Shown in pieces: positions 3 through 14,988 of a stretch of 64,000 bases of DNA. Below the pieces are notes generated by a model. It was not told where the DNA came from, did no database searches, and saw only the letters and a list, made by a program, of their open reading frames with translations. How positions within the stretch are numbered: the stretch's first letter is position 1; every line of letters starts with the position of its first letter. The position numbers and the translations under genes were made by a program. This stretch comes from a virus: IMG/VR virus record IMGVR_UViG_3300030329_006193, positions 1-64,000 of that record; one strand, 5' to 3'.

Positions 3-50
3 AGTATACAGGACGTGTAGGTGGTGTCAAGGATTATTTTAGTAATTTTG
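3..50 (-). promoter_or_regulatory. sigma70-type promoter (TTGACA-N16-TATACT with AT-rich UP-like region) firing leftwards out of the window
   Basis: Minus strand reads caaaattactaaaataatcc-TTGACA(30..25)-16 nt-TATACT(8..3). It is intergenic, just after the stop of the 54..446 ORF. Confidence 0.7.
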
Positions 51-53
51 CTG

Positions 54-446
54 TCAAGATGTGTAATCTATAATCCGGGGGGGCTCGTCAAGCGCCGTAA
101 GTTCTCCGGTATCAAGATTGTAATTGGCGGTAATTTGGATGGACTCGGGCGGACCTTCCTCAAGCCACCGGGCCCTAAGTCCCGTGAACCCCAACTCTTC
201 CATAAATTCTGGCTTTAATTCAAAGAATCTTTCCGGGCTGCGGTAGCCATCTTCTTTGTGGCTAACATAGCTTGATGTGTCTATCTTGTCGAGAGGCACA
301 CCGGTCACATACGCCACCGGACGCGAGCGGTCGCCCCTGTGGTGACCTGCGGAGTATATTAGAAAGTCGTAGGTGCCACCAAGACCTTCCACTTCTTCCA
401 GTTCTTCTCTAATGATTTGCTTTAGTTTTGCTTTTGTTAGTTTCAT
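54..446 (-). CDS. leader-family protein (MKLTKAKLKQIIREEL), putative internal head/ejected protein
   Basis: 130-aa ORF with the N-terminal leader shared with five neighbours. Its TYDF...YxxxVP cargo resembles that of 1112..1873. Confidence 0.8.
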   Translation of the reverse strand: MKLTKAKLKQIIREELEEVEGLGGTYDFLIYSAGHHRGDRSRPVAYVTGVPLDKIDTSSYVSHKEDGYRSPERFFELKPEFMEELGFTGLRARWLEEGPPESIQITANYNLDTGELTALDEPPRIIDYTS

Positions 447-450
447 TTTA

Positions 451-1110
451 TTATGCCCTGGGTGCCTTGTCTTCGAGCGCCCTTAGGAGCGCCGATGCCG
501 GGTCGAGGCCGTCGGCGACGTACTTATCCACCAGCTTCACGCCATTTCCCAACTGGGAAACGAGGCCCGGATAGAGTCCCCGAAGCTCCTCTACCGCGTC
601 GGCGCCTGATGAGGCGAGTCCGGTCTTGAGGGGATATGCACCAGTGCGAGCATCAAATTTGTCCTTCCGGCGCCAATACCTTATTCCCGACTTGGTGTCG
701 ATTTCCTCGTCGTAGTACCTGGGATCGGGGTAATCATTTTCACTGGCGTCGAGCATCTGCTGTAATTGCTCTAGGCTCGGCTGACCACGATTCGGCTCAC
801 CGCCATAACTCCAAATTATTTTGGGCAAGTCAGCAGTATGTTCAACTTCCAGATTTGCCAGGTGCCTCGCCCTTTTCTTGAAGAACCTGTTCACATCATC
901 TGGACCAGCGATGTGGGGTTGGTCGGTGCCATAGAGGCGAGAGACTTTGTCAAAAAGTTCCAGAGCCTCGTCATCCGGATAAGGAGCCCCCTTAACAATG
1001 ATCTTTTCTTCTTCCCAGGCGCCCGGGTCCTGGGGACGAAGTCTTTTACTTCGCGCTTCGTTAAGCTCTTCCTTGATAATCTGTCGTAGCTTTGCTTTTG
1101 AAATCTTCAT
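451..1110 (-). CDS. leader-family protein (MKISKAKLRQIIKEEL), function unknown
   Basis: 219-aa ORF with the shared leader; GGAG RBS upstream (AAGGAGAATAAAATG). Confidence 0.8.
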   Translation of the reverse strand: MKISKAKLRQIIKEELNEARSKRLRPQDPGAWEEEKIIVKGAPYPDDEALELFDKVSRLYGTDQPHIAGPDDVNRFFKKRARHLANLEVEHTADLPKIIWSYGGEPNRGQPSLEQLQQMLDASENDYPDPRYYDEEIDTKSGIRYWRRKDKFDARTGAYPLKTGLASSGADAVEELRGLYPGLVSQLGNGVKLVDKYVADGLDPASALLRALEDKAPRA

Positions 1111-1114
1111 TTTA
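1063..1114. repeat. 52-bp direct repeat, copy 1 (leader-coding); copy 2 at 1577..1628
   Basis: aagctcttccttgataatctgtcgtagctttgcttttgaaatcttcatttta vs ...ctttggaaatc...: 51/52 identical. Confidence 0.9.
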
Positions 1115-1873
1115 TTCTCCTTTGCCGCGGCCGGTATAGCGGTGGTTGATTGTCATGATCAATTTTTGCTTCTGATTTTCATATTGCCTATCGGCATTTT
1201 TACTTGGATAGTCAGCGTTCTGGTACATACGCCAGAGGTACTCCATCCCGTCCAGGGCAGTGAGAATATCATCATAACTCGCTCCGGTAGGGTGGTCTCC
1301 TGCGGCAAAGTCGTGTACCTCGGCGTCGCTGCCGGGTTCTCCCTCTAGGGGGCGCACGGCGTGCTCGTAACGATCGAAGCCATATCTCTTCAGGAGTGAA
1401 GATTTTGGTTGTCGCTCGTCCTTGTAGCCCGAGAACTCCGTCGCAGACTTCGGTACATTCACTAAATAGAAAAGTGTCTCCCCGAGTTCGCCGCGACTGT
1501 CTGTCACGAAAACCTGAAAGTCGTAGGTTTCGTCGGAATCCGCATCTCTCGGGTCCCACTCCTCGTTAAGATTTCCAAGCTCTTCCTTGATAATCTGTCG
1601 TAGCTTTGCTTTGGAAATCTTCATTTTACTATTCTTTTTTTTAGACTCCTGTAAAGAGTTCATTATATCTATCAGCTCTTCAGAACTATAAACATCCCCC
1701 AAAGTCAGAGCTTCATACTCCGGATCACCTACGTCACCGACCACATCTCTCAGGGTAATGGCTTCAATGTCCACACTTCCCAAGTCGTCTCCCGTCACCC
1801 GAGCCGCTTGCAGTTCTGATGCAAGGTGGTCGCGGACATAGTGTTCGATCTCCTCTTTGTCGACGGGTTCCAT
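1112..1873 (-). CDS. leader-family protein with an internal leader copy (possible second start at 1624)
   Basis: 253-aa ORF: acidic 83-aa N-terminal region, then MKISKAKLRQIIKEEL beginning at ATG 1624. Confidence 0.75.
   Translation of the reverse strand: MEPVDKEEIEHYVRDHLASELQAARVTGDDLGSVDIEAITLRDVVGDVGDPEYEALTLGDVYSSEELIDIMNSLQESKKKNSKMKISKAKLRQIIKEELGNLNEEWDPRDADSDETYDFQVFVTDSRGELGETLFYLVNVPKSATEFSGYKDERQPKSSLLKRYGFDRYEHAVRPLEGEPGSDAEVHDFAAGDHPTGASYDDILTALDGMEYLWRMYQNADYPSKNADRQYENQKQKLIMTINHRYTGRGKGE
1577..1628. repeat. 52-bp direct repeat, copy 2 (leader-coding)
   Basis: 51/52 identical to 1063..1114. Confidence 0.9.
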
Positions 1874-1877
1874 TTTT

Positions 1878-2366
1878 TTATCCTAATCCTAGGCGCTGAG
1901 CTACCTGATAAGATGAGACTGCACCCTGCGCAGCTTTCTGAACCTGCTGGGGGCTAACCCTCTTCTGACGGAGTGCATCAGCAACCCGATTGCGAAGTCC
2001 ATGCATCTCTGCGTGCTTACCCAAAAGCTGGGTAGCCTGCTGATACGCCCTATCGCCTTGTCCCCAACCTTCTTGCATCGGAGCATACATCGGGTTGGCG
2101 AGGATGTGCTGAAGCGTGGCAAACATCGGAGCATCCAAACTCATGCTAAGGTCTTTTAACTCATCGCGAGTCATGTTGCCCAGAGCCTCTCTAGCCTTTA
2201 TAAGAATGAGAAGTCGCTCTTCAGGGGATCCGAATGCTCGGTCAATAACCTCCTCTTCCTCGGACGCAGCAATATCTTCGATACCAGCGCCTGGTCGCTC
2301 AGCGCCGCGCATGGCATCCAGCTCTTCCTTAATAATATCTTTTAGTCTTTGTTTGGTGATTTTCAT
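1878..2366 (-). CDS. leader-family protein (MKITKQRLKDIIKEEL)
   Basis: Start moved to ATG 2366, which overlaps the upstream TAA (TAATG coupling) and begins the leader. Confidence 0.8.
   Translation of the reverse strand: MKITKQRLKDIIKEELDAMRGAERPGAGIEDIAASEEEEVIDRAFGSPEERLLILIKAREALGNMTRDELKDLSMSLDAPMFATLQHILANPMYAPMQEGWGQGDRAYQQATQLLGKHAEMHGLRNRVADALRQKRVSPQQVQKAAQGAVSSYQVAQRLGLG
2338..2365. repeat. 28-bp exact direct repeat (leader-coding); copy 2 at 2703..2730
   Basis: tcttttagtctttgtttggtgattttca is present at both positions. Confidence 0.9.
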
Positions 2367-2731
2367 TACTTTCTCCATCTCCCTGTTCTCGCTCCATAGG
2401 CTAGCCTATCGATTTCTTTCTGTGAAGGGTCGCCTTTCAGACGTAAGGTTGCCGCGGGCTCGACTTCGGCAAGACCGTCGCCATCGGCTTTGAGGGCGCT
2501 TTGGCGATTCATCGCTTTGTCAATGCTACTATACTCGTGCGCGCCATCTCGGGGGCCAAACTTAGGGCGACCGCCGGAGTCGAGGCCGTGAAGGTAAGCC
2601 TCTTCGGCACCCTTTCCGGACATCCTCAATACAAACGGCCCATCTTCATCATCCATCATCAGAGCTTCGCGCTCATACTTGGTAAGTTCTTCCTTGATGA
2701 TCTCTTTTAGTCTTTGTTTGGTGATTTTCAC
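2366..2731 (-). CDS. leader-family protein (MKITKQRLKEIIKEEL)
   Basis: 121 aa; GTG start overlaps the upstream TGA (GTGA), with AGGAG RBS upstream. Confidence 0.8.
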   Translation of the reverse strand: MKITKQRLKEIIKEELTKYEREALMMDDEDGPFVLRMSGKGAEEAYLHGLDSGGRPKFGPRDGAHEYSSIDKAMNRQSALKADGDGLAEVEPAATLRLKGDPSQKEIDRLAYGARTGRWRK

Positions 2732-2979
2732 TTTAGTTCTCCTACCTTGCGCATTGCGGCGGCCACATACCCTTCGGGGTTTTTGATCTTGGGCTTATTT
2801 GTTTTGACCCACGCAACCTTCGCGTCGAAGGTGGGCTGAGACATCATGTCCTCTAATAGCCCCTTCTCAATGTCTTCTAGCAACTCGTCGCCCATCTGAC
2901 GTATCTCGTGAACCATCTTGTACCTCTTGTAGGTCTCTTCGTGGATGATCTGTTTTAAGCGGGCGCTTGAGATTTTCAT
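2728..2979 (-). CDS. leader-family protein (MKISSARLKQIIHEE)
   Basis: Start moved to ATG 2979, preceded by AGGAG-TTGAT; 83 aa with a divergent copy of the leader. Confidence 0.75.
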   Translation of the reverse strand: MKISSARLKQIIHEETYKRYKMVHEIRQMGDELLEDIEKGLLEDMMSQPTFDAKVAWVKTNKPKIKNPEGYVAAAMRKVGELK

Positions 2980-2987
2980 ATCAACTC

Positions 2988-3923
2988 CTATAACGACATC
3001 GTGAGTGTCAACAATAAATAGTTGTCCGGTGTTATAAGGGTCGCCTTTTCCAGGCATTTTCGGAAATGATCCTTTTTCATTGAGCCAACATCCTCGTTGT
3101 CTCCGATATCAACCTTCCAAACCTCAATATCAAAATCGAGCAACGTCTTTATAATCTCAAGCTCTTTCTTCTTCGCGTCAGGATCCAGAGCAACATAAAC
3201 TCCGGCATCCTCTTTTACGATCCTACGGAGCAAAACAGAGTTCTGATTTAGTGTAGATCCCAGAATGGGTACTGCGTTTCTGCCCGCGGTGATGGCATCG
3301 AAAACACCCTCCACCAGAATAATATCGGAACTCCAATCCACAAACAAATCATTGAAGACAATGTTCTTGCTCACTGGTGGGTTCTTGTACTTGGGATAGA
3401 ACTTCTTGTCGTAAGAGCGAGACACAAAATAGGTCAGATCGCCCTCTTCGTCAAATGACGGAATGATGATGCGCCCCTCATACTCGCCACTGGCGCAGTA
3501 TCCCATCTTCCACCACATGATATCTTTCTTGTCGATACCACGCTTGCGCAGATAGTTACGGGCCGCGAAACCGGTGGGGGGAACGTCTTTGCTGGCCAGA
3601 GAAACAAACCCCTCCGGCATCTCAACTACTTGTTTTTCTTCGACTTTCTCTTCGAAAAGATCTTCGAGCTTGTCGTATTCAACAGCGTCAGTAAACTCTC
3701 GCCACTGTCCTTTATCATGATTCGTACCGAATCTTCTAATAACACGGTAAATGTTCTTGCCACGCGTATCGCAGACCCAACACTTGTAGTAACCTTTGTC
3801 GATGTTAACAGAAAACTTGCGCTTGTGATGGTTGCAATAAGGGCAAGAAAATAAATATTCATTGTTGGATCTGTAAGCAGGTCCGAGAACATTAGTGAGA
3901 ATCTTGAGTTTCTTGGTTTTCAC
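2988..3923 (-). CDS. dnaG: DNA primase (Zn finger + Toprim)
   Basis: CPYC...CWVC zinc finger; RIIIP and YFVSR; Toprim ILVEGVFDAI and VALDPDA. Confidence 0.9.
   Translation of the reverse strand: MKTKKLKILTNVLGPAYRSNNEYLFSCPYCNHHKRKFSVNIDKGYYKCWVCDTRGKNIYRVIRRFGTNHDKGQWREFTDAVEYDKLEDLFEEKVEEKQVVEMPEGFVSLASKDVPPTGFAARNYLRKRGIDKKDIMWWKMGYCASGEYEGRIIIPSFDEEGDLTYFVSRSYDKKFYPKYKNPPVSKNIVFNDLFVDWSSDIILVEGVFDAITAGRNAVPILGSTLNQNSVLLRRIVKEDAGVYVALDPDAKKKELEIIKTLLDFDIEVWKVDIGDNEDVGSMKKDHFRKCLEKATLITPDNYLLLTLTMSL
3014..3022 (-). promoter_or_regulatory. candidate phage late-promoter motif ACTATTTAT
   Basis: Lies ~35 nt upstream of the first leader-family gene; the same 9-mer is intergenic at 8433..8441. 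Confidence 0.3.
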
Positions 3924-4425
3924 AGATAAGCCCAGCCTTTGCTACAACGTAACTGTCGGCTCGGTCAGCATAACCGGGGCGAGGATTACCTTGTCTAGTG
4001 TATTCTACATCAAAGTCGGGCACGTTGTCAATGATAAAATCCATGACAACCTTCTTTGCCTTCTGGCCGCGGGGGACCTTAATAGAGCAAAGCTTTCGCG
4101 CTTCCTGGGCCTTCAAGTACTTGGGCTCAAGGTCAAATAAATTATAGCATATCCACGACACAACGCCATTAAATTTTTGCAGCGCGGCCATCGTCGCGGC
4201 GGAAGAGCCGCCGGACTTGAAAAATAAAAACGGCTGCTCGATGTATACCGCGTGAATGGTGGCGTAGCTCGTGATGCGTGCGAGGGCATCCTCCACAAGT
4301 GCCACCTTCTTAAAGAAGTTCTTCTCTTTGCGCATATCCACATGGCCGCACTCTACAATTTTGCCTGTTTCATCTAGCAGAGTATAGCCTGTAATACTAG
4401 TGGAGACATCTATTCCTAAAATCAT
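3892..4425 (-). CDS. ruvC: RuvC-like Holliday junction resolvase
   Basis: MILGIDVSTSITGY, VYIEQP and DRADSYVVA supply the RNase H-fold acidic catalytic residues. Confidence 0.8.
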   Translation of the reverse strand: MILGIDVSTSITGYTLLDETGKIVECGHVDMRKEKNFFKKVALVEDALARITSYATIHAVYIEQPFLFFKSGGSSAATMAALQKFNGVVSWICYNLFDLEPKYLKAQEARKLCSIKVPRGQKAKKVVMDFIIDNVPDFDVEYTRQGNPRPGYADRADSYVVAKAGLICENQETQDSH

Positions 4426-8432: not shown

Positions 8433-8441
8433 ATAAATAGT
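8433..8441 (-). promoter_or_regulatory. candidate phage late-promoter motif ACTATTTAT
   Basis: Intergenic, directly upstream of the GAGG RBS and ATG of structural gene 7468..8415. Confidence 0.4.
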
Positions 8442-8452
8442 CTTAAATATCA

Positions 8453-11179
8453 TTATTCGCTTCCTTTTACAATACCGGAATTCTTAAAGTTTAGATTCAA
8501 ATCTATTTTCCTTCCTGTTTTTTTGCTTACTAAGCGAACCTTGAAATCCTTATTCCAAATACTGTCTGCAATATTGGCCTCCCCTAAATGCACTGTAGGG
8601 GTGTCGTTCGTTGTGACAGGAAGCGGCTGCGCATCACTCTGATATTCAACTTGCCGCGCTGCCGGCTCTATCAGTATATACTTCCTTCCCGAAATTGTTA
8701 ACGGTTGTTTTACAGTTTCAAAAACATAGGGCTTCTGTCGCAAGTAAATTTGGCCGGCGTTATCTACCATCTCCACCTCAATAATGGGGCTAGGATTGGA
8801 AATGTTGTCATGCACATCCACGGAGCGCACACAATAATAATACGTCACATTTGGTTCTATAGTGTCCATAAAATCTGCGGGCGTTCCGTACGTTGGATCT
8901 AAATCCGGGGAAATTCGCTCCGCATCAACAAAACTCTCATAACCGGTTGGCGGTGTTGATGTGCGGAACACCTGATATCTATCCACTGGGTCATCACTCC
9001 TAAAGTGAATGGTTTTCTTCTGCTCTCGAATCTGTTCATATGTGAGTGTGGCCCCCTGCTGAGAGGCATACTCCATCTCAAAGAAGGCTGGATCCGTATC
9101 CTGAATTGCGATAGGAGGCATATGATAGTCCCCGGTGCTGGAATTCAAGAGGAGGCGCACTCGATTGGCTACGCCTTGATGAGCATAAAACGAAACCTCG
9201 GGGGGTACGGGAGGAGAATCTACAATTAGGCTTTCGAGACCTTGATCTTCGGGGTCTGGGCCCGCTGTATAAGGCAATAATATCACCTTTAGGTTACCCA
9301 TATTTTGGACCTCTACGGGAACAGCGGCGGGTTCGCTGAGGTCCAAAACGACACTTGTGTCGTAGCTGTAAGCATTTCCAAAAATGGCAACCATCTTTTG
9401 GATCTTATAGCGATACTTCTTTTCATATTTTACCTGAGAATCGTAAAACGTAATAGCACGACCTAAGGTATCAGTTCGGAAGCGATTAGTGAGATAGAAC
9501 TTCTGTACTAAGGCGCCATCTGATCCATTCTCATTGACTTCGTGCTTGCTCACTACATACATCAGGGTCTCCGTGTGGCACCACTGTCCTTGAAGAATTT
9601 CTATATAGGTTCTCATGAAAGCGGGGTAGTCATTTAAAATTTGAGCGTAGGCTGCTTGAGCGGTTCCAGGAGGGATCTCAAGGCGCGCGGAGGGGTCTGA
9701 GGAAAAACCGTTTCCAGCAGAGTCAAGGCAGCGCGCATAATCTCGGATGAACCGATAGGGAGGGCCTCCCGCGGGGAGGACCGTCGGGTCGACGTACTCA
9801 TTAATAATATCTTGGGCTTTAGCGATTGCAGTCTGAGCTTGCAGGTTCGGATGTATCGCATTAACATAGTTATTAAGTTCCAACATCATATTTACCAAAT
9901 AAGAATAAGAATTTTGGGCAGTTTCGTACTGAATATCCGAGGCGTCGGTGGCACTTAAAACATTTTTGGTAGTTACCCTATACTCTCCCGAAGAGTCACC
10001 CGGAGCGCGATATCCCTCTAGGGTATTAATGCACATTACCTGAAGAATATCTATAAATGCCGCGGTGTCGGGCTTATCAGCCATCCAAGTGAACAAAGAT
10101 TGTCCACTATTGAGCCCCGTCCGCGCTTGCGGATCCTGAGGGATTTGGATTTCATTTACGAACGGAACCAGGGTGTCGGAAATATATTCTCCCAATAGGG
10201 CCTTCTCATCGCTACTAAGCACCACAAATGTTGAATTATTTTGGGCAGCAGTCGCCAGTTGGCCCGCAGGGATAGAGGAGATACCCGTGAAGGTCTGGGC
10301 ATATACCTCATAAGCAGTCTTAGTGGTTTCTTCGGTAACGGCTGTGCCGTCCTGTAACATATAGGCTGCGGCTCCGCCCACATTCAGAGTGTCGACATGC
10401 CACATCGTGAGTGGAGTTGCGCTTTCATTATGCATCTCCGATTGCATAATATAAATATTAGGAAGATAGGTTTCGGACACCTCTGACGGGGCAATTGCAC
10501 TCTCATAGGGTCCTACATAATAATTGTATTTAGGGAGCACCCCAAGAGACGTTCCAATGGCTTCTCTCTTGTCTTTTTTGCCTGAGATGGAGTAAACACA
10601 GCATGCATAATCCTCATGGGGAGAAACCAGAGAGTCATCATTGAGGAGGCTCTTATAGTCTTGCGTCACAACAGTGAAAGAATCAGGGTTTGCTATATAG
10701 TTATAAAAGTTCTGCCGGCTGGACTGTAGGGTCGCCAGGGGCGGTCGCAACGTGTTCCCCTCCCAGGATCCGATCCAATTCATGGCTCCCGGAACCATGT
10801 TGTTATAGTAATTCCAGGCGCTACTCTTAGGAACAACCTGTAGGGTGGGGTTTATCTGTGCGGACCGAGAGCTATTTTCTATCTGTTCCATATTGGAGAT
10901 TTGAATAACGAGGTTTTCAGTCTGGAATTCCAGCCGGCCTAGAGATGGAGACTCGTGGTCCGTCGCGTTCCCCGGATTAGGATAGGGCCACAGTGTGTAT
11001 CCTCTAGAAGATTTATAGACGGTTTGATATCTCCCTAAGACTGCGCGCAGGCGATCGCTCATATTCCAGTTTTGGCGCAGCATGGGATGGAAGCCATTAG
11101 GATTATTGAGCCTCTCAGTGGGACCTACGAGTGCCTCGTTAACAATCTTATATAAGGTTTTGAAACTACTATCTGTCAT
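8453..11179 (-). CDS. large structural protein with FN3/Ig-like C-terminal elements
   Basis: 908 aa; FMDTIEPNVTYYYCVRSVDVHDNISNPS is an FN3-type strand pattern; tail-module context. Confidence 0.55.
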   Translation of the reverse strand: MTDSSFKTLYKIVNEALVGPTERLNNPNGFHPMLRQNWNMSDRLRAVLGRYQTVYKSSRGYTLWPYPNPGNATDHESPSLGRLEFQTENLVIQISNMEQIENSSRSAQINPTLQVVPKSSAWNYYNNMVPGAMNWIGSWEGNTLRPPLATLQSSRQNFYNYIANPDSFTVVTQDYKSLLNDDSLVSPHEDYACCVYSISGKKDKREAIGTSLGVLPKYNYYVGPYESAIAPSEVSETYLPNIYIMQSEMHNESATPLTMWHVDTLNVGGAAAYMLQDGTAVTEETTKTAYEVYAQTFTGISSIPAGQLATAAQNNSTFVVLSSDEKALLGEYISDTLVPFVNEIQIPQDPQARTGLNSGQSLFTWMADKPDTAAFIDILQVMCINTLEGYRAPGDSSGEYRVTTKNVLSATDASDIQYETAQNSYSYLVNMMLELNNYVNAIHPNLQAQTAIAKAQDIINEYVDPTVLPAGGPPYRFIRDYARCLDSAGNGFSSDPSARLEIPPGTAQAAYAQILNDYPAFMRTYIEILQGQWCHTETLMYVVSKHEVNENGSDGALVQKFYLTNRFRTDTLGRAITFYDSQVKYEKKYRYKIQKMVAIFGNAYSYDTSVVLDLSEPAAVPVEVQNMGNLKVILLPYTAGPDPEDQGLESLIVDSPPVPPEVSFYAHQGVANRVRLLLNSSTGDYHMPPIAIQDTDPAFFEMEYASQQGATLTYEQIREQKKTIHFRSDDPVDRYQVFRTSTPPTGYESFVDAERISPDLDPTYGTPADFMDTIEPNVTYYYCVRSVDVHDNISNPSPIIEVEMVDNAGQIYLRQKPYVFETVKQPLTISGRKYILIEPAARQVEYQSDAQPLPVTTNDTPTVHLGEANIADSIWNKDFKVRLVSKKTGRKIDLNLNFKNSGIVKGSE

Positions 11180-11182
11180 TGT

Positions 11183-14005
11183 CTAGTATCCCGTTAGGAT
11201 GGAATCCTCCAGCGACATCCTTCCCCCTGCAGAAGTACGACTTAGCGAGGGGGGCGAAGGACTATGGGGCACCAAGGGGATGTTACTGGCGTAATAAATC
11301 TCAACGTGACCTCTCATTTCTTTATTAGCGCTCGCATCTACGTTCCTAACATAATCATAAATGTTCTTTAGAACGCTAGTGTAAGTAGACCGACCAGTAG
11401 CATTTTGGGCCGGGCCGAGACTAAACAGAGTCCCGAGAGACTCCAGATCCAAAATATTATTAGCTGTGATGGTTTGTTCGATCCGATTTAAGCGACACAG
11501 TAATGGTCGACCGGCGTCAAGAGCGGTTTTGAAAATTTCTTCATTCAACGCTGCCCACTCTGGTGCTAAGACGCCTAAGCGCTGATCATAAGATTTCAAA
11601 TACTCCACCCGAACCAGAGAATCAAAGTTAATAACCTTGGAAACATCATCTATCTTGGCCTCTATAGTGGGAGCAGCGTTATCGGCTGCCACCGCTAAGG
11701 CCCCCGGCAGAATGGTGCGATTAGTCATCTTAACAACCGGCTGAAATTGAACCATCTGCTTATTGAAAACCGCACGAGCTAGGGGTGCAGCGAAAATCCT
11801 TCGAGAACGTGCCGTACTTTTACGCAAAATGCTATCGAAAGACCCCGAAACCCTGGCCCGTACATAAGTATCGTCATCTACAAACCTAGAGGTACGTGAG
11901 AGATAGTTAGCTGATGACACGCCCTCTGACAACTTCTGAGCATCCGGGAATAGCAGTTCCCGTAAACTCTCCTGTAGAGGCTCCACTGCGATTCCGGCCA
12001 TGGCTAGGGACTCTTGAATATCGGTCGTGGCCGACTTCTGCTCTTCCATGGCTAACTCAATAGTAGGGGACACACGGTCTCGGAGCAATCCTGTGAGTGC
12101 TTCAGTGTCCACTTGAACACTCATGGTAGAAATAGGGTGGTCTTTGCGACCTGTTCTGATCTGGATGGGGGACATATACCCGTAGGTATTAATCGAAGCA
12201 GCGTTAGGATTAGGAACGGCATACTTGGTAACTTCCTGGCTTACCCTCTCCGACATTGCCTCATAAGAAACAGTCGGTAGAAGACCAGAGGACGGAGAGA
12301 AGTAATCTCCCACATAATCAAAACCAACCTGTTTGCGATTTTTTAAAGTATAGCGTTGTCTAAAGGTATGAACCCCAGAGAGTACGCCGGGTTGGACCGG
12401 ATGATAAATAGTAGAATAATTTTTACTCGACAGAGAAGTGGTCGCTTGTCCCACCTTTAGAACATTGGATATCTGAGCGGCGAAGGTTTCTACTATGTTG
12501 CTCACCAACAAATGGTCCGCCTGATTAGTATTGGCGGCAGCACCCAAGGCAACTAAATTTTTCTTCCACGAAAGCATTGAGAATTCCGCAAAAGGGAGCG
12601 AGCCGAAAATAAAATTAACGGTGGCCAGGTAGGCATCGATAAGCTGCTCTAAAATTTTATCCCCGTTGCCGCGGCCAGTGAGATGAGCTGTGTAATCCCT
12701 CAGTCCCGCCTGAAGCATGTCGCGAAGATTTCCTAAAACCTCTGCTGTGTTATCGGCTATCAAAACTTCTGCACGATATTCTGCTACGCCCATATCCAAC
12801 TGGGCGGCTGCTTTATCCGAAAAAACAATATTCAATATATCCTCGTTCTCTAGATTAGGAACTTGAATCAATTGGACGTCTCCCTTTTTGAAGGAGGCGA
12901 AATATTCAAAAGGTGCCGGTGTCACCTCGCTCAAGTTCATGTCCGTCCCTGGGGTGAGGGCATTACTGTTAGCTCCCCCCGAAGCCACGCGGCGGTACAG
13001 TTTAATATCATCGAGTTGAACGCTGCTTAAGAGAGCCTGAGGGTTCTTCATCAGTCCGCCGAAGCGCGCGTTTTGAACTACATAAGAGCGCAGATCGAAA
13101 GCAAACATTCCTAAGATTTCTCCCGACGGATTCCGCGAAAGAGTCACGGGAGAAAAATAAGGCTTGTCTTCATAAGGGGCCGGGACATTTTCAAAACTTA
13201 ACTGACGAGCAGATGACAAAAAGCGCAAATCCTGAATCTTAAGGTTTTCCACCACCGACGGGGTAAGGGCGGGGTGCTCCTCGTCGGTATGATAATCGCC
13301 TGCCATGATAAGATTGTGGTGAGTATGAATAGGGCCAGGCCAGACATCTCCCTGCTGACCATAGCCTTCCATGGTAGTAGTAAGACGATAAAGGTGGGAC
13401 GTGGCCGCACTGACGTTATTCTCTAAGAGAGTTTCCCGAGAAACATTTCCTATAAAGCACATCTCCCCCACTATACGATAGGAGGCGACCAGAACATAGA
13501 GAGAGGAGACCTCCCTAGAGTCAAGACCCAATATCTCATCATCCTGCGTATGGGCAGCGACGAGGAGGCCGGTAGTAGCGGACCCACCCTTCGTGTCACG
13601 CAGTACACTTTCTTCGCTATAGACATACTGGTGGATCTTCCTCTCAGTATCGTGAGAGGACATGAGAGTTTTGAAGTGAAAGTCTTGTGCGGTCAGCAAA
13701 AACTCTTTATTGCGCACTTGAGAGGTGCTAAGTTTGGTTCCCTTGATGAGTGTTTTAAGGCGCGACATGTCCGGGTGTCCGGTGTCATCATAAAGCATTG
13801 CATCCAGGGTGCCCTTTTCAGTACTCAAAAACACAAAATTACCAAACCCAATATTCTGCTCGGGTGAAGGAAGCTTTGCTAACTCGTTAGATATCTGTAG
13901 CTTGACTACCGCCTCGTTCTCGGCGTTGTAAGATAGCGTAGCCTGTTGAAGATTAGCAAAAGGAATCTGTTGAGAAGATTCGAACATCAAAGGGGAGATA
14001 GCCAT
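11183..14005 (-). CDS. large hypothetical structural protein
   Basis: 940-aa ORF coupled to the upstream gene (TGATG); tail-module context. Confidence 0.6.
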   Translation of the reverse strand: MAISPLMFESSQQIPFANLQQATLSYNAENEAVVKLQISNELAKLPSPEQNIGFGNFVFLSTEKGTLDAMLYDDTGHPDMSRLKTLIKGTKLSTSQVRNKEFLLTAQDFHFKTLMSSHDTERKIHQYVYSEESVLRDTKGGSATTGLLVAAHTQDDEILGLDSREVSSLYVLVASYRIVGEMCFIGNVSRETLLENNVSAATSHLYRLTTTMEGYGQQGDVWPGPIHTHHNLIMAGDYHTDEEHPALTPSVVENLKIQDLRFLSSARQLSFENVPAPYEDKPYFSPVTLSRNPSGEILGMFAFDLRSYVVQNARFGGLMKNPQALLSSVQLDDIKLYRRVASGGANSNALTPGTDMNLSEVTPAPFEYFASFKKGDVQLIQVPNLENEDILNIVFSDKAAAQLDMGVAEYRAEVLIADNTAEVLGNLRDMLQAGLRDYTAHLTGRGNGDKILEQLIDAYLATVNFIFGSLPFAEFSMLSWKKNLVALGAAANTNQADHLLVSNIVETFAAQISNVLKVGQATTSLSSKNYSTIYHPVQPGVLSGVHTFRQRYTLKNRKQVGFDYVGDYFSPSSGLLPTVSYEAMSERVSQEVTKYAVPNPNAASINTYGYMSPIQIRTGRKDHPISTMSVQVDTEALTGLLRDRVSPTIELAMEEQKSATTDIQESLAMAGIAVEPLQESLRELLFPDAQKLSEGVSSANYLSRTSRFVDDDTYVRARVSGSFDSILRKSTARSRRIFAAPLARAVFNKQMVQFQPVVKMTNRTILPGALAVAADNAAPTIEAKIDDVSKVINFDSLVRVEYLKSYDQRLGVLAPEWAALNEEIFKTALDAGRPLLCRLNRIEQTITANNILDLESLGTLFSLGPAQNATGRSTYTSVLKNIYDYVRNVDASANKEMRGHVEIYYASNIPLVPHSPSPPSLSRTSAGGRMSLEDSILTGY

Positions 14006-14988
14006 CAGCAGGGCTCCTCGTTATCGGATTCATAGATATCTCGGACAAGGCCGGGGCGGTCGGCGGTGTCGACCGGCACATTCCATTCAGCATAAGTAGA
14101 CTGAGCGATGTCGTCATCCATAAGAATGTTTATATAATATTCTACATTCCCCGGCAGATTTAAATCATTTTCGATTGGTCTTTCTGGAGCAAACATAGAA
14201 CTTCCTGTAGGAGTGAATGCAAGTTGAGTATAATTGCCGTCTGAACCAGACGCGTAGACTTCGATATCGAAATTGTCTTTATCAAAGGGGGTGTTCTGTT
14301 CAGTTATCTCCAACAATAAATAGTTGTTTTCTACAGTTAGATAAAGGTCCCCTCCGGGAATAGTAAAAATGGTCTCACGAGGATTCTCAAAGTTAACACT
14401 ATCCACATCACTATAGAACATTTGATAATCTATGTTGATGTTGAGTTGGGGAATATTTTCTACACCCCCCTCGGAGCCCGTAGCATAAAAACGGACAGGA
14501 CCATCTGCGCCCGGAGCGACCGTATAGCCCGTATTAAGATAAGTAGTACTTGAAGCTATCTCAGGGGTGGAATGCAGTTGAACATCCCACGCGGCGTCGT
14601 GTCGGGAATCTAAGGAGGAGCGCCCAATAGCATGAGCATTTAAGCGGCCCTTTTCAGCAAAAGGCTCCACCTGACTAAAAACCTGCAAGTCATCCGCCAC
14701 ATCAGTGTTGGGTCCTACCAGATCGGTAATCTCCTGAACAAATGAAGCGACGCGTTGTTCGGCGCCCGTGCGAGTAGGAATCACTTTAAGATTGGGGGTG
14801 TTAGACTGTATGCGGGGCTCGGCCTCGTTCTGATTCTCGGTAAAGCCCGCACAGTTGGTATCATAGACTACATCGTCATCAAAAAACGCATAGTAGACAG
14901 GCTTAAGGCGCCCGAGGGACAGAAGATATTTGCCGTACTCTGTAAGTTGAAAGTCTAAAACTTCTTCTTTCTTATTAAAGAATTCCAT
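14005..14988 (-). CDS. virion structural protein (collar-like N-terminus, paralog of 7468..8415)
   Basis: LDFQLTEYGKYLLSLG...YAFFDDDVVYD; TAATG-coupled to the giant ORF. Confidence 0.6.
   Translation of the reverse strand: MEFFNKKEEVLDFQLTEYGKYLLSLGRLKPVYYAFFDDDVVYDTNCAGFTENQNEAEPRIQSNTPNLKVIPTRTGAEQRVASFVQEITDLVGPNTDVADDLQVFSQVEPFAEKGRLNAHAIGRSSLDSRHDAAWDVQLHSTPEIASSTTYLNTGYTVAPGADGPVRFYATGSEGGVENIPQLNINIDYQMFYSDVDSVNFENPRETIFTIPGGDLYLTVENNYLLLEITEQNTPFDKDNFDIEVYASGSDGNYTQLAFTPTGSSMFAPERPIENDLNLPGNVEYYINILMDDDIAQSTYAEWNVPVDTADRPGLVRDIYESDNEEPC

Follow-up and report, generated by a model that had tools for sequence, protein, structure and literature searches.

A portable leader on unrelated proteins of an uncultured marine T4-like phage: a possible analogue of the T4 capsid-targeting sequence

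Repoila and colleagues are said to have described, in 1994, internal-protein loci that are polymorphic among T-even phages, with different open reading frames beginning with a start that resembles a capsid-targeting sequence (CTS). Such loci are summarised elsewhere (PMC9026906, section 3.1; PMC3012670). In T4, the internal proteins IPI, IPII, IPIII and Alt carry a CTS which is removed by the prohead protease gp21 (Mullaney & Black 1996; PMC9026906, PMC3012670, PMC8442874). This protease cuts after L/I-X-E and the T4 CTSs are 10–19 aa long (PMC9026906). The T4 CTS reads MKTYQEFIAE, with residues 4, 7, 8 and 10 as key positions, and the internal proteins are highly basic (PMC8442874). Among giant phages, phiKZ, 201phi2-1 and SPN3US have a gp175-type protease that cuts head, inner-body and ejection proteins after S/A/G-X-E (PMC9026906, PMC5694885).

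A six-gene array and its surroundings

The array studied here belongs to an uncultured marine T4-like phage. It occupies positions 54-2979, on the minus strand, of the window (the whole 64-kb stretch of DNA that was analysed) and consists of six tightly coupled ORFs with dissimilar bodies, all starting with MK[IL][TS]xxxL[KR]xII[KRH]EE. Neighbouring genes are separated by gaps of 0-4 nt or joined by stop/start overlaps (TAATG, GTGA), and a Shine-Dalgarno sequence precedes most of them. A degenerate pattern of the leader DNA gave 6 matches in the window, all located in the array, compared to 0.00 expected from 100 shuffles.

The first gene, P6 (2728..2979, minus strand, 83 aa), starts with MKISSARLKQIIHEE and carries AGGAG 5 nt 5' of its ATG. 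P5 (2366..2731, minus strand, 121 aa) uses a GTG start which overlaps the P6 stop (GTGA), and its product starts with (M)KITKQRLKEIIKEEL. The ATG of P4 (1878..2366, minus strand, 162 aa) overlaps in turn the P5 stop (TAATG). P4 has many orthologues; its leader is followed by a conserved DAMRGAERPGAGIEDIA segment, then by a helical body, and it closes with a C-terminal tail that is variable. P3 (1112..1624, minus strand) encodes 170 aa counted from the leader Met, and its frame is open upstream as far as an ATG at 1873. This in-frame, stop-free and acidic extension of 83 codons (1625..1873, minus strand) has its own ATG and an AGGA box, and ends with LQE↓SKKKNSK immediately before the leader (the arrow marks the bond after Glu); no relatives of it were found among the fetched loci. 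P3 may be translated from 1873 as a 253-aa protein with an internal leader. P2 (451..1110, minus strand) encodes 219 aa, and its leader-coding DNA matches that of P3 at 47/48 nt. The last gene, P1 (54..446, minus strand, 130 aa), is 97.6% identical at the DNA level to the last array gene of the relative L002.

The six bodies are mutually unrelated as judged by BLASTP (E<1e-3). A weak TYDF(L/Q)(I/V) stretch is common to P1 and P3. Searches of the six array proteins and of head-module neighbours against Pfam and PHROGs returned nothing significant, and the P4 model had no match in the PDB by Foldseek at E<=0.001. An earlier note on this DNA had described six consecutive packed genes with a common leader, mostly unrelated bodies and the hydrophobic-X-E sites LEE↓V, LNE↓A, LNE↓E, LLE↓D, LQE↓S and MQE↓G. 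All these sites are present in the array and the description of the bodies holds. All six genes carry the leader as well, except that in P3 it may not stand at the head of the protein if translation begins at 1873. On the same contig, outside the window (72.9-76.2 kb), we found more leader-like genes together with a second leader type.

Upstream, the array is bordered by a conserved flank, a DnaG-type primase gene (2988..3923, minus strand), with a sigma-70-like promoter on the primase side (4002-4031). Just downstream lies another sigma-70-like promoter, TTGACA-16-TATACT (3..30, minus strand, 11/12), from which the following gene is probably transcribed; in the close relative G041 that gene is gp46/47-like. 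Since the array is surrounded by replication and recombination genes and placed between these two promoters, early expression by read-through is possible. A CTATTTA motif (3015..3021, minus strand, in the context acaaCTATTTAttg) is located 42 nt 5' of the P6 start, within the 3'-terminal part of the primase gene. It precedes the first array gene in both this phage and G041, shows a strand bias of 19:1 in the own genome and 11:0 in G041, and occurs 25-43 nt upstream of the G041 sheath gene and of four other large, likely virion-structure genes in its tail/baseplate and capsid regions. As judged from this distribution, CTATTTA is a candidate promoter that the array and the structural genes would have in common. 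The T4 late promoter TATAAATA has 0 occurrences on the coding strand versus 9 on the other strand, and was left out of account.

Cassettes turn over between close relatives. When the locus was compared to L002 and G041, the parts that aligned were limited to the flanks, P1, part of P4 and leader segments of 50-60 nt. Within the array, the leader-coding DNA of P4 and P5 is identical at 42/48 nt. A conserved Shine-Dalgarno spacer, GGAGAAUAAAAUG, is found ahead of many units. Logan contigs over the array displayed leader-to-leader joints and loose ends, and assembly graphs break at leaders. At the 85% likeness used in metagenomes, most of these joints and ends are indistinguishable from leader genes of other phages, and only the joint from 2730 to 2985 was used, cautiously.

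The leader is a portable module

An amphipathic helix, the leader is carried by unrelated bodies. Scanning IMG/VR yielded at least 228 distinct leader proteins, of which 209 bodies fell into at least 181 BLASTP clusters, while a profile search of public data retrieved at least 17,243 clusters at 50% identity (E<=1e-3). This supports the modular tag on unrelated bodies that the earlier note proposed. The bodies measure between 22 and 485 aa. Positions 1-16, the core of the leader, are rich in information, 17-22 carry little and later positions none, so that the core is followed by a weaker extension to about residue 22. The helix has a heptad-like spacing (L8, I11/12, L15/16, V19/L20), and in the AF2 model of P4 a helix spanning residues 5-20 is predicted, followed by a disordered stretch (23-43) and then by a separate helical body. 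The highly charged nature of this helix led us to drop a signal-peptide or membrane-anchor reading.

The leader is under selection at the protein level, because its invariant residues use many synonymous codons: among the matches listed, L8 is encoded by CTT (77), CTA (64) or TTA (50), and E15 by GAA (118) or GAG (110). A signal residing in nucleic acid alone was dropped on the same grounds. Leader genes form tandem arrays of 3-28 genes per genome, and polyproteins with repeated leader units are also present, in which internal copies devoid of a start codon (NKITK, TKITK) stay in frame.

Few of the cargos resemble known proteins. A Pfam domain was detected in just 4 of 150, and no known anti-defence family was found among these 150 by Pfam; domains behind the leader include an AAA_33 kinase and FliG_C. 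The bodies have a median pI of 5.1, with 63% below 6 and 21% above 8.5.

Outside viral metagenomes the leader is all but absent. Only 50 stretches fit its pattern in 596 Gb of cellular genomes, and the two MAGs with leader arrays that were checked (TMED69 and SP2999) are likely mis-binned phage, since both also hold PF03420, the gp21-type protease family. No match was obtained in 50,697 cultured-phage records by nucleotide and short-peptide searches. The leader profile showed the leader to be absent from HTVC008M, Syn9, P-SSM2, Mel-JY01 and Flavobacterium phage immuto, which together gave just two weak partial hits, taken as chance. No leader model exists in Pfam or PHROGs, and a literature search for the leader motif strings found no papers.

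Cleavage-type motifs, head modules and alternative readings

Conservation of the leader stops at hydrophobic-x-E motifs of the gp21 type. The sequence motif I12-x-E14 is present in 6/6 array genes, and 98% of 199 relatives have an [LI]-x-E whose Glu is residue 14, a figure partly imposed by the search pattern. In 38% of the 199 there is another [LI]-x-E with its Glu at residue 21 or 22, and any [LI]-x-E ending at 17-26 was found in 51%, compared to 10% in body windows. The position after the invariant E14 is always E, which was counted against a gp21-type cut there. A second leader, MKLLLENWRKYLxE, unrelated to the first and carried by the same phages, also ends in L-x-E at residues 12-14. L/I/V/M occupies residue 12 in 92% of its copies and E residue 14 in 87%, neither of which is forced by the search.

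The earlier note had also suggested looking for a gp21-type protease and for the leader on scaffold/core proteins. The leader appears to be restricted to phages with this S77 protease: PF03420 was found in 7/7 leader-bearing phage genomes at least 79% complete and in 31/50 leader-bearing records >=35 kb. The own contig contains neither protease nor head module because it is a 49%-complete fragment. The close relative G041, which shows the same RuvC-primase-array order, encodes portal, gp21, gp23 and sheath. This association could nevertheless stem from the shared ancestry of one phage clade instead of from function.

Leader genes are found within head modules of many relatives. True leader genes directly adjoin the protease in L133, L134, L135 (two), L137, L149, L152 (two), L158 and L160. 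Among the 27 head modules examined, 8 show such adjacency, and about 15 do when variant leaders are included; these counts are biased because the fragments were chosen for holding a leader. Within 4 kb of the leader, portal genes were found in 29, terminase in 27 and protease in 20 of 126 loci, where about 6 would be expected for a given gene. Apart from the S77 protease and packaging genes no enzyme family was enriched within this distance, and apart from head and packaging genes no recurrent partner genes were found beside arrays. In the five near-complete genomes to which the leader profile was applied, the main arrays lie kilobases from the protease.

A conserved protein of about 140 aa is encoded after the protease in 22 of these 27 modules. 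It starts with MKKSELKxIIKECVKE and is matched to the leader profile by hhalign (probability 74%, E 2.9e-5, 21 columns). This protein was not found in HTVC008M, Syn9, P-SSM2, Mel-JY01 or immuto, and ESM Atlas returned unnamed viral clusters or nothing for it and for the P2 body. Gene position designates this protein and the protease-adjacent leader proteins as putative prohead core proteins. Prediction of complexes between the leader peptide and the G041 putative scaffold, post-protease protein or protease gave no answer (score 0.00) and counts neither way.

Several explanations of the conserved leader other than a capsid tag were considered. One could expect that conservation sits in the nucleic acid, as a translation-initiation, regulatory or recombination cassette encoding a functionless peptide, given the near-identity of leader-coding DNA within the array, the breaks of assembly graphs at this DNA and the Shine-Dalgarno spacer ahead of many units. 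This is largely refuted: across phages the amino acids are kept while codons are free, and the start-less internal leaders of polyproteins are maintained in frame. Alternatively, the genes could be fast-diverging paralogues of one ancestral gene, in which the N-terminal helix stayed under constraint and the remainder diverged past recognition, without any modular tag. The near-identity of the P2/P3 and P4/P5 leaders does indicate recent duplication or gene conversion, and the weak TYDF stretch of P1 and P3 would also fit. This explanation is nevertheless very improbable given the spread of body lengths and the at least 181 unrelated clusters among 209 bodies, the different folds and domains behind the same leader, the repeated units in polyproteins and a conservation which is nearly complete in the leader and then vanishes over a few residues.

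Two other readings accept a functional peptide and give it another destination or purpose. The helix may dock on a hub outside the capsid, the cargos then being small, mostly acidic host-takeover or regulatory effectors tethered to a common host or phage partner, or zipped into hetero-oligomers. The heptad-like spacing of the helix, the acidic cargos, the location among replication genes with sigma-70-like promoters on both sides and the distance of the main arrays from the head module in near-complete genomes are all in line with such a hub. We nonetheless consider it unlikely, since it leaves unexplained why conservation ends at Phi-x-E in two unrelated leaders, why leader genes adjoin the head protease in many lineages and why the N-terminus of a conserved protein of the head module resembles the leader; in addition, only head and packaging genes recur beside arrays. 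The leader might also be a tag for another enzyme (a modifying enzyme, another protease, or a chaperone or degradation system of the host) and govern maturation or turnover instead of location. An HExxH protein (genome positions 71315-72388) is indeed encoded near the second leader cluster, and CTATTTA precedes its gene. However, the enrichment near leader genes is confined to the S77 protease and packaging genes, and the leader lacks the Cys, Ser or Thr patterns that mark modified cores, which makes this role a rather remote prospect.

Proposed role and comparison with known systems

Taken together, these results favour somewhat, with a probability of about 0.55, a leader that acts as a diverged and much expanded analogue of the T4 CTS and serves this uncultured clade of marine T4-like phages as an address tag. 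Core binding, cleavage, retention in the virion, injection and the roles of the cargos are what we infer from sequence and gene context. The array would be expressed with, or alongside, virion proteins. The leader helix would then dock each protein on the prohead core assembling around the gp21-type protease, which would cut after hydrophobic-x-E, either at I12-x-E14 or at an L-x-E at residues 20-22. The freed variable body would stay in the head, possibly to be ejected with the DNA, or be degraded. The near-identical leader-coding DNA may double as a recombination site by which bodies are swapped between genes and strains. Of the modular head-packaging and injection system put forward in the earlier note, the parts supported are modularity, occurrence in T4-like phages with an S77 protease, the Phi-x-E boundary and, in many relatives, the leader on proteins of the head or core module. 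The mostly acidic cargos, unlike the basic T4 internal proteins, speak against it.

A broader proposal is tentative, and we regard it as more doubtful than probable. A globally distributed, uncultured marine T4-like clade may load its heads by two tags, type A (MKITKxQLKQIIKEE) and type B (MKLLLENWRKYLxE), both cut after Phi12-x-E14. These would bring well over ten thousand unrelated cargo families, enzymes and multi-unit polyproteins included, into the capsid, from which the host would receive them, and the families would be shuffled as cassettes via the tag-coding DNA. If true, no larger repertoire of virion-delivered effectors would be known. If the tag does load heads, sequence alone flags at least 17,243 clusters of uncharacterised proteins as candidate virion-carried, host-injected proteins of abundant ocean phages, and a peptide of 14-22 residues would offer a handle for studying how T4-like phages other than the E. 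coli model package proteins; conserved tag DNA would also be seen to drive the exchange of effector cassettes. Even with a destination outside the capsid, few unannotated N-terminal modules would be as widespread as the leader in viral metagenomes.

Encapsulin cargo-loading peptides illustrate how one short conserved peptide suffices to bring unrelated cargos into a shell of the HK97 fold. Unlike the leader as proposed here, they are as a rule C-terminal and uncleaved, and bind the shell directly in a cellular nanocompartment. The giant phages carry many head-internal proteins with N-terminal propeptides, which a gp21-related protease removes after Glu, with several redundant sites. Their propeptides, however, are not one shared portable sequence, and the proteins form large paralogue families found in virions by proteomics.

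With the T4 CTS, the leader shares a short N-terminal format with an MK start on otherwise unrelated proteins, and the spacing Phi-xx-Phi-Phi-x-E (Y4, F7, I8 and E10 in T4; L8, I11, I12 and E14 here); in T4 an E10D change blocks cutting. As in T4, the near-complete leader-bearing genomes encode a gp21-type S77 protease, and the cargo set varies between close relatives. No homology to MKTYQEFIAE is detectable: by eye only MK and the spacing are common, which is too short for an alignment statistic. The leader is also longer (14-22 aa versus 10), and is found in arrays of 3-28 genes, on thousands of cargo families and within polyproteins with internal tags, and one phage can have two distinct tags. 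Its cargos are mostly acidic, in contrast to the highly basic T4 internal proteins. The organisation of the locus recalls the T-even internal-protein loci, which are likewise hyperplastic, with conserved leader or flank DNA framing interchangeable bodies and contents that differ between near relatives. Whereas those loci hold one or few genes, including the anti-restriction IPI*, the leader arrays are larger.

The leader array and its upstream elements

The source record (76.4 kb, the first 64 kb of which form the window) is 49% complete according to CheckV, and all window genes lie on the minus strand without exception. The baseplate wedge protein of the window matches gp6 of T4-like phages, its nearest cultured relatives being found in Microcystis phage Mel-JY01 and Flavobacterium phage immuto (about 30% identity). 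At the extreme contig end, downstream of a RuvC-like gene and a DnaG-type primase, six minus-strand genes, P6 (2728-2979), P5 (2366-2731, start codon GTG), P4 (1878-2366), P3 (1112-1624), P2 (451-1110) and P1 (54-446), share the N-terminus MK[IL][TS]xxxL[KR]xII[KRH]EE, the type A leader. They are translationally coupled, with stop and start codons overlapping or separated by 1-4 nt, and Shine-Dalgarno boxes stand in front of most of them. A degenerate leader DNA pattern matched six times in the 64-kb window, always in the array, against zero expected, and BLASTP detected no mutual match between the six bodies. This confirms what the earlier note had described, a shared leader on six packed genes with dissimilar bodies. 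One point departs from the earlier note: the frame of P3 continues open for another 83 upstream codons and reaches an ATG (position 1873) that has an AGGA box of its own. The P3 product may therefore be of 253 aa, with an internal leader directly after LQE|S. No relatives of this extension were present in the fetched loci.

The heptamer CTATTTA is located at 3015-3021 (minus), 42 nt before P6, with another window copy at 8434-8440 (minus). It is strongly strand-biased, with 19 coding-strand copies versus 1 on the other strand over the whole contig, and 11 to 0 in G041, a close relative. Of the 11 G041 copies, six stand 25-43 nt ahead of a start codon, the starts being those of the tail sheath gene, the gene after the capsid gene, the first leader-array gene and three more large genes in the tail/baseplate region. 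The T4 late promoter TATAAATA occurs nine times, never on the coding strand. CTATTTA may be a candidate late-type promoter element of this phage clade.

A portable leader with cassette behaviour

The leader phenomenon is far larger than is visible from the window. A back-translated pattern run over IMG/VR recovered at least 120 stretches and at least 228 distinct leader proteins. Several positions unforced by the pattern are conserved (T4 79%, K5 73%, Q10 52%, L/I/V at position 16 80%); conservation is weak at positions 17-22 (a hydrophobic pair, then E) and absent beyond. Since the invariant residues are encoded by many synonymous codons, selection acts at the peptide level, not at that of RNA or DNA. 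Most bodies are unrelated: 209 of them fell into 181 BLASTP clusters, 166 being singletons, and a Pfam domain was detected in 4 of 150 (AAA_33, FliG_C, DUF3008 and one weak match). The profile scan suggested by the earlier note placed the leader on 17,243 clusters (50% identity, E<=1e-3) among 1.84 billion representatives. No leader model exists in Pfam or PHROGs, and no paper containing the motif was found in the literature searched.

The best profile matches carry two to four leader units per protein. The ribosome-binding spacer GGAGAAUAAAAUG, when read in frame, gives the frequently seen junction xE(N/S/G)K|M. True polyproteins exist, since certain internal units have no start codon (NKITK..., TKITK...). 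In P0079, P0075, P0090 and P0073, with 2-4 leader-plus-body units each, the internal leaders without Met (NKITKSQLAQIVQEEL) are preceded by ...DDDWMWE, a hydrophobic-x-E site.

The 48-nt leader-coding segments of P2 and P3 agree at 47/48 positions, those of P4 and P5 at 42/48. Compared with the relative L002, identity is 73% in the flank, 97.6% in P1 and 79-88% in parts of P4, while for P5, P3 and P2 the alignment is confined to 50-60-nt leader segments. The G041 array has three genes versus six in the window. Logan contigs assembled from four marine metagenomes show peaks of depth, and also contig breaks, at leader segments; one joint, 2730->2985, deletes P6 in two runs, and most other joints are inseparable from genes of other phages. 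The P4 family is itself a mosaic, consisting of the leader, an invariant 17-residue DAMRGAERPGAGIEDIA segment directly after it, a helical core ending in NPMYAP and alternative C-terminal tails. Within this family (P4, 1878-2366; alignment A5), the switch among several unrelated tails occurs after NPMYAP-M(E/Q)E. The AF2 model of P4 (pLDDT 74.5) has a disordered linker between the leader helix and the body.

Carrier genomes and the head module

A gp21-type protease, which the earlier note had proposed to look for, was identified as Peptidase_S77 in 31 of the 50 leader-bearing records of >=35 kb, all fragments of large genomes, including all seven that are >=79% complete. It was not found in the window's own contig, which is 49% complete. 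G041 has an identical RuvC-primase-array order and 82% identical primase DNA; later genes on this strand encode a gp46/47-like nuclease, terminase, portal (PF07230), gp21, gp23 (PF07068) and tail sheath. Directly downstream of its leader array, a single 1050-aa ORF (L139:14723-17875) combines Metallophos nuclease and SMC_N/Rad50-like domains, and would be a gp47-gp46 fusion (two genes in T4). The leader was absent from the five cultured T4-like phages examined (HTVC008M, Syn9, P-SSM2, Mel-JY01 and immuto).

The leader pattern matched only 50 stretches across 596 Gb of genomes from bacteria and archaea, with multi-copy arrays on MAG contigs only. The two array-bearing MAGs checked also contain an S77 protease, so that the array contigs are likely mis-binned phage DNA. 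These contigs, PBIO01000025.1 and NHDW01000006.1 (loci L204, L206 and L212; 101 kb and 306 kb, with 9 and 11 leader genes), were binned as Halobacteriovorax and Methylococcaceae MAGs and are probably large T4-like phage genomes.

The head module was examined in 26 fetched protease neighbourhoods and G041. True leader genes directly adjoin the protease in 8 of these 27 modules (L133, L134, L135 with two, L137, L149, L152 with two, L158 and L160), a count resting on fragments chosen for carrying a leader; variant leaders adjoin it in L136, L153, L155, L156, L159, L162 and L166. In G041, a 537-aa protein immediately after the protease starts MRISRAELDRLIEAEINE. In 22 of 27 modules the protease is followed by a conserved ~140-aa protein, whose N-terminus, MKKSELKxIIKECVKE, matches the leader profile over 21 columns (hhalign probability 74%, E 2.9e-5). 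The earlier note had proposed to look for the leader on scaffold/core proteins; in many relatives, genes of the head module carry it. At L137:696-1415, immediately upstream of the protease, the leader heads an AAA_33 P-loop kinase-like body, an enzyme cargo placed where T4 has core genes 67/68. Most relatives also carry a bS21-like ribosomal protein gene just after the MKKSEL protein (e.g. L140:10051-10272, L136:2441-2647 and L151:3389-3631). Within 4 kb of leader genes, the commonest neighbours at 126 loci were portal (29), the protein upstream of terminase (28), terminase (27), gp46/47-like (25) and protease (20), against ~6 expected for a random gene.

Cleavage-type motifs and comparison with T4

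I12-x-E14 of the leader is near-invariant. In 38% of leader proteins a further [LI]-x-E has its E at residue 21 or 22, and such a site ends at 17-26 in 51%, versus 10% in equal body windows. The same phages use a second, unrelated and widespread tag, type B (MKLLLENWRKYLxE; at least 120 stretches, up to 4 copies per IMG/VR locus), which flanks the protease in six modules. Its conservation ends at hydrophobic-x-E, residues 12-14 (L/I/V/M 92%, E 87%), neither being imposed by the search. Helix periodicity alone would hardly account for two unrelated tags ending, at one shared position, in an identical protease-type motif.

At the far end of the window's own contig (locus L132, minus strand), three adjacent type B genes (12141-12722, 12785-13549 and 13550-14182; contig 74.1-76.2 kb, outside the window) encode larger proteins starting MK(L/I)(L/I)(L/F/M)ENWRK(Y/F)(L/I)xE, one HAD-like in look. 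Three leader-like genes stand at 10922-11245, 11252-11821 and 11825-12118 (contig 72.9-74.1 kb; MKLTRKNLKALIAEE, MSIDYAQLKRLVEDA and MKKSELMRIIREEIEVVL), the last with CTATTTA 30 nt upstream. The same heptamer precedes L132:9316-10389 (contig 71315-72388, minus), a gene adjoining Ala/Lys/Glu-rich low-complexity ORFs; its 357-aa product bears the HExxH metalloprotease-like motif HELVHH and is very charged in its C-terminal half.

Taken together, these sequence features suggest, with a probability of about 0.55, that the leader is an analogue of the T4 capsid-targeting sequence (CTS) which has diverged and expanded greatly, and that type B is a second tag following the same logic. This reading also draws on the position of the type B motif, on the head-module protein with its leader-like N-terminus, on the upstream motif and on the neighbourhood counts. 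The main rival, a docking helix for a non-capsid hub, appears rather unlikely. Several observations weaken the capsid reading. Most bodies are acidic, with a median pI of 5.1, in contrast to T4 internal proteins, which are highly basic. The five near-complete genomes searched with the leader profile carry 5 to 28 leader genes, mostly arrayed, and their large arrays are not beside the protease; the adjacency counts, for their part, come from leader-selected fragments, and the leader-S77 association may be partly phylogenetic. The window array is flanked by two sigma-70-like promoters within a replication/recombination region, making early expression possible. Finally, E15 is invariant and immediately follows the putative cut site, which hints at a function additional to cleavage.

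The cargos might conceivably be injected as anti-defence effectors. T4 CTSs are propeptides of 10-19 residues conferring affinity for the prohead core, and gp21 cleaves after L/I-X-E (PMC9026906). Compared with the T4 sequence MKTYQEFIAE (PMC8442874), the invariant leader residues L8, I11, I12 and E14 are spaced as T4 residues 4 and 7, involved in targeting, and 8 and 10, involved in processing.
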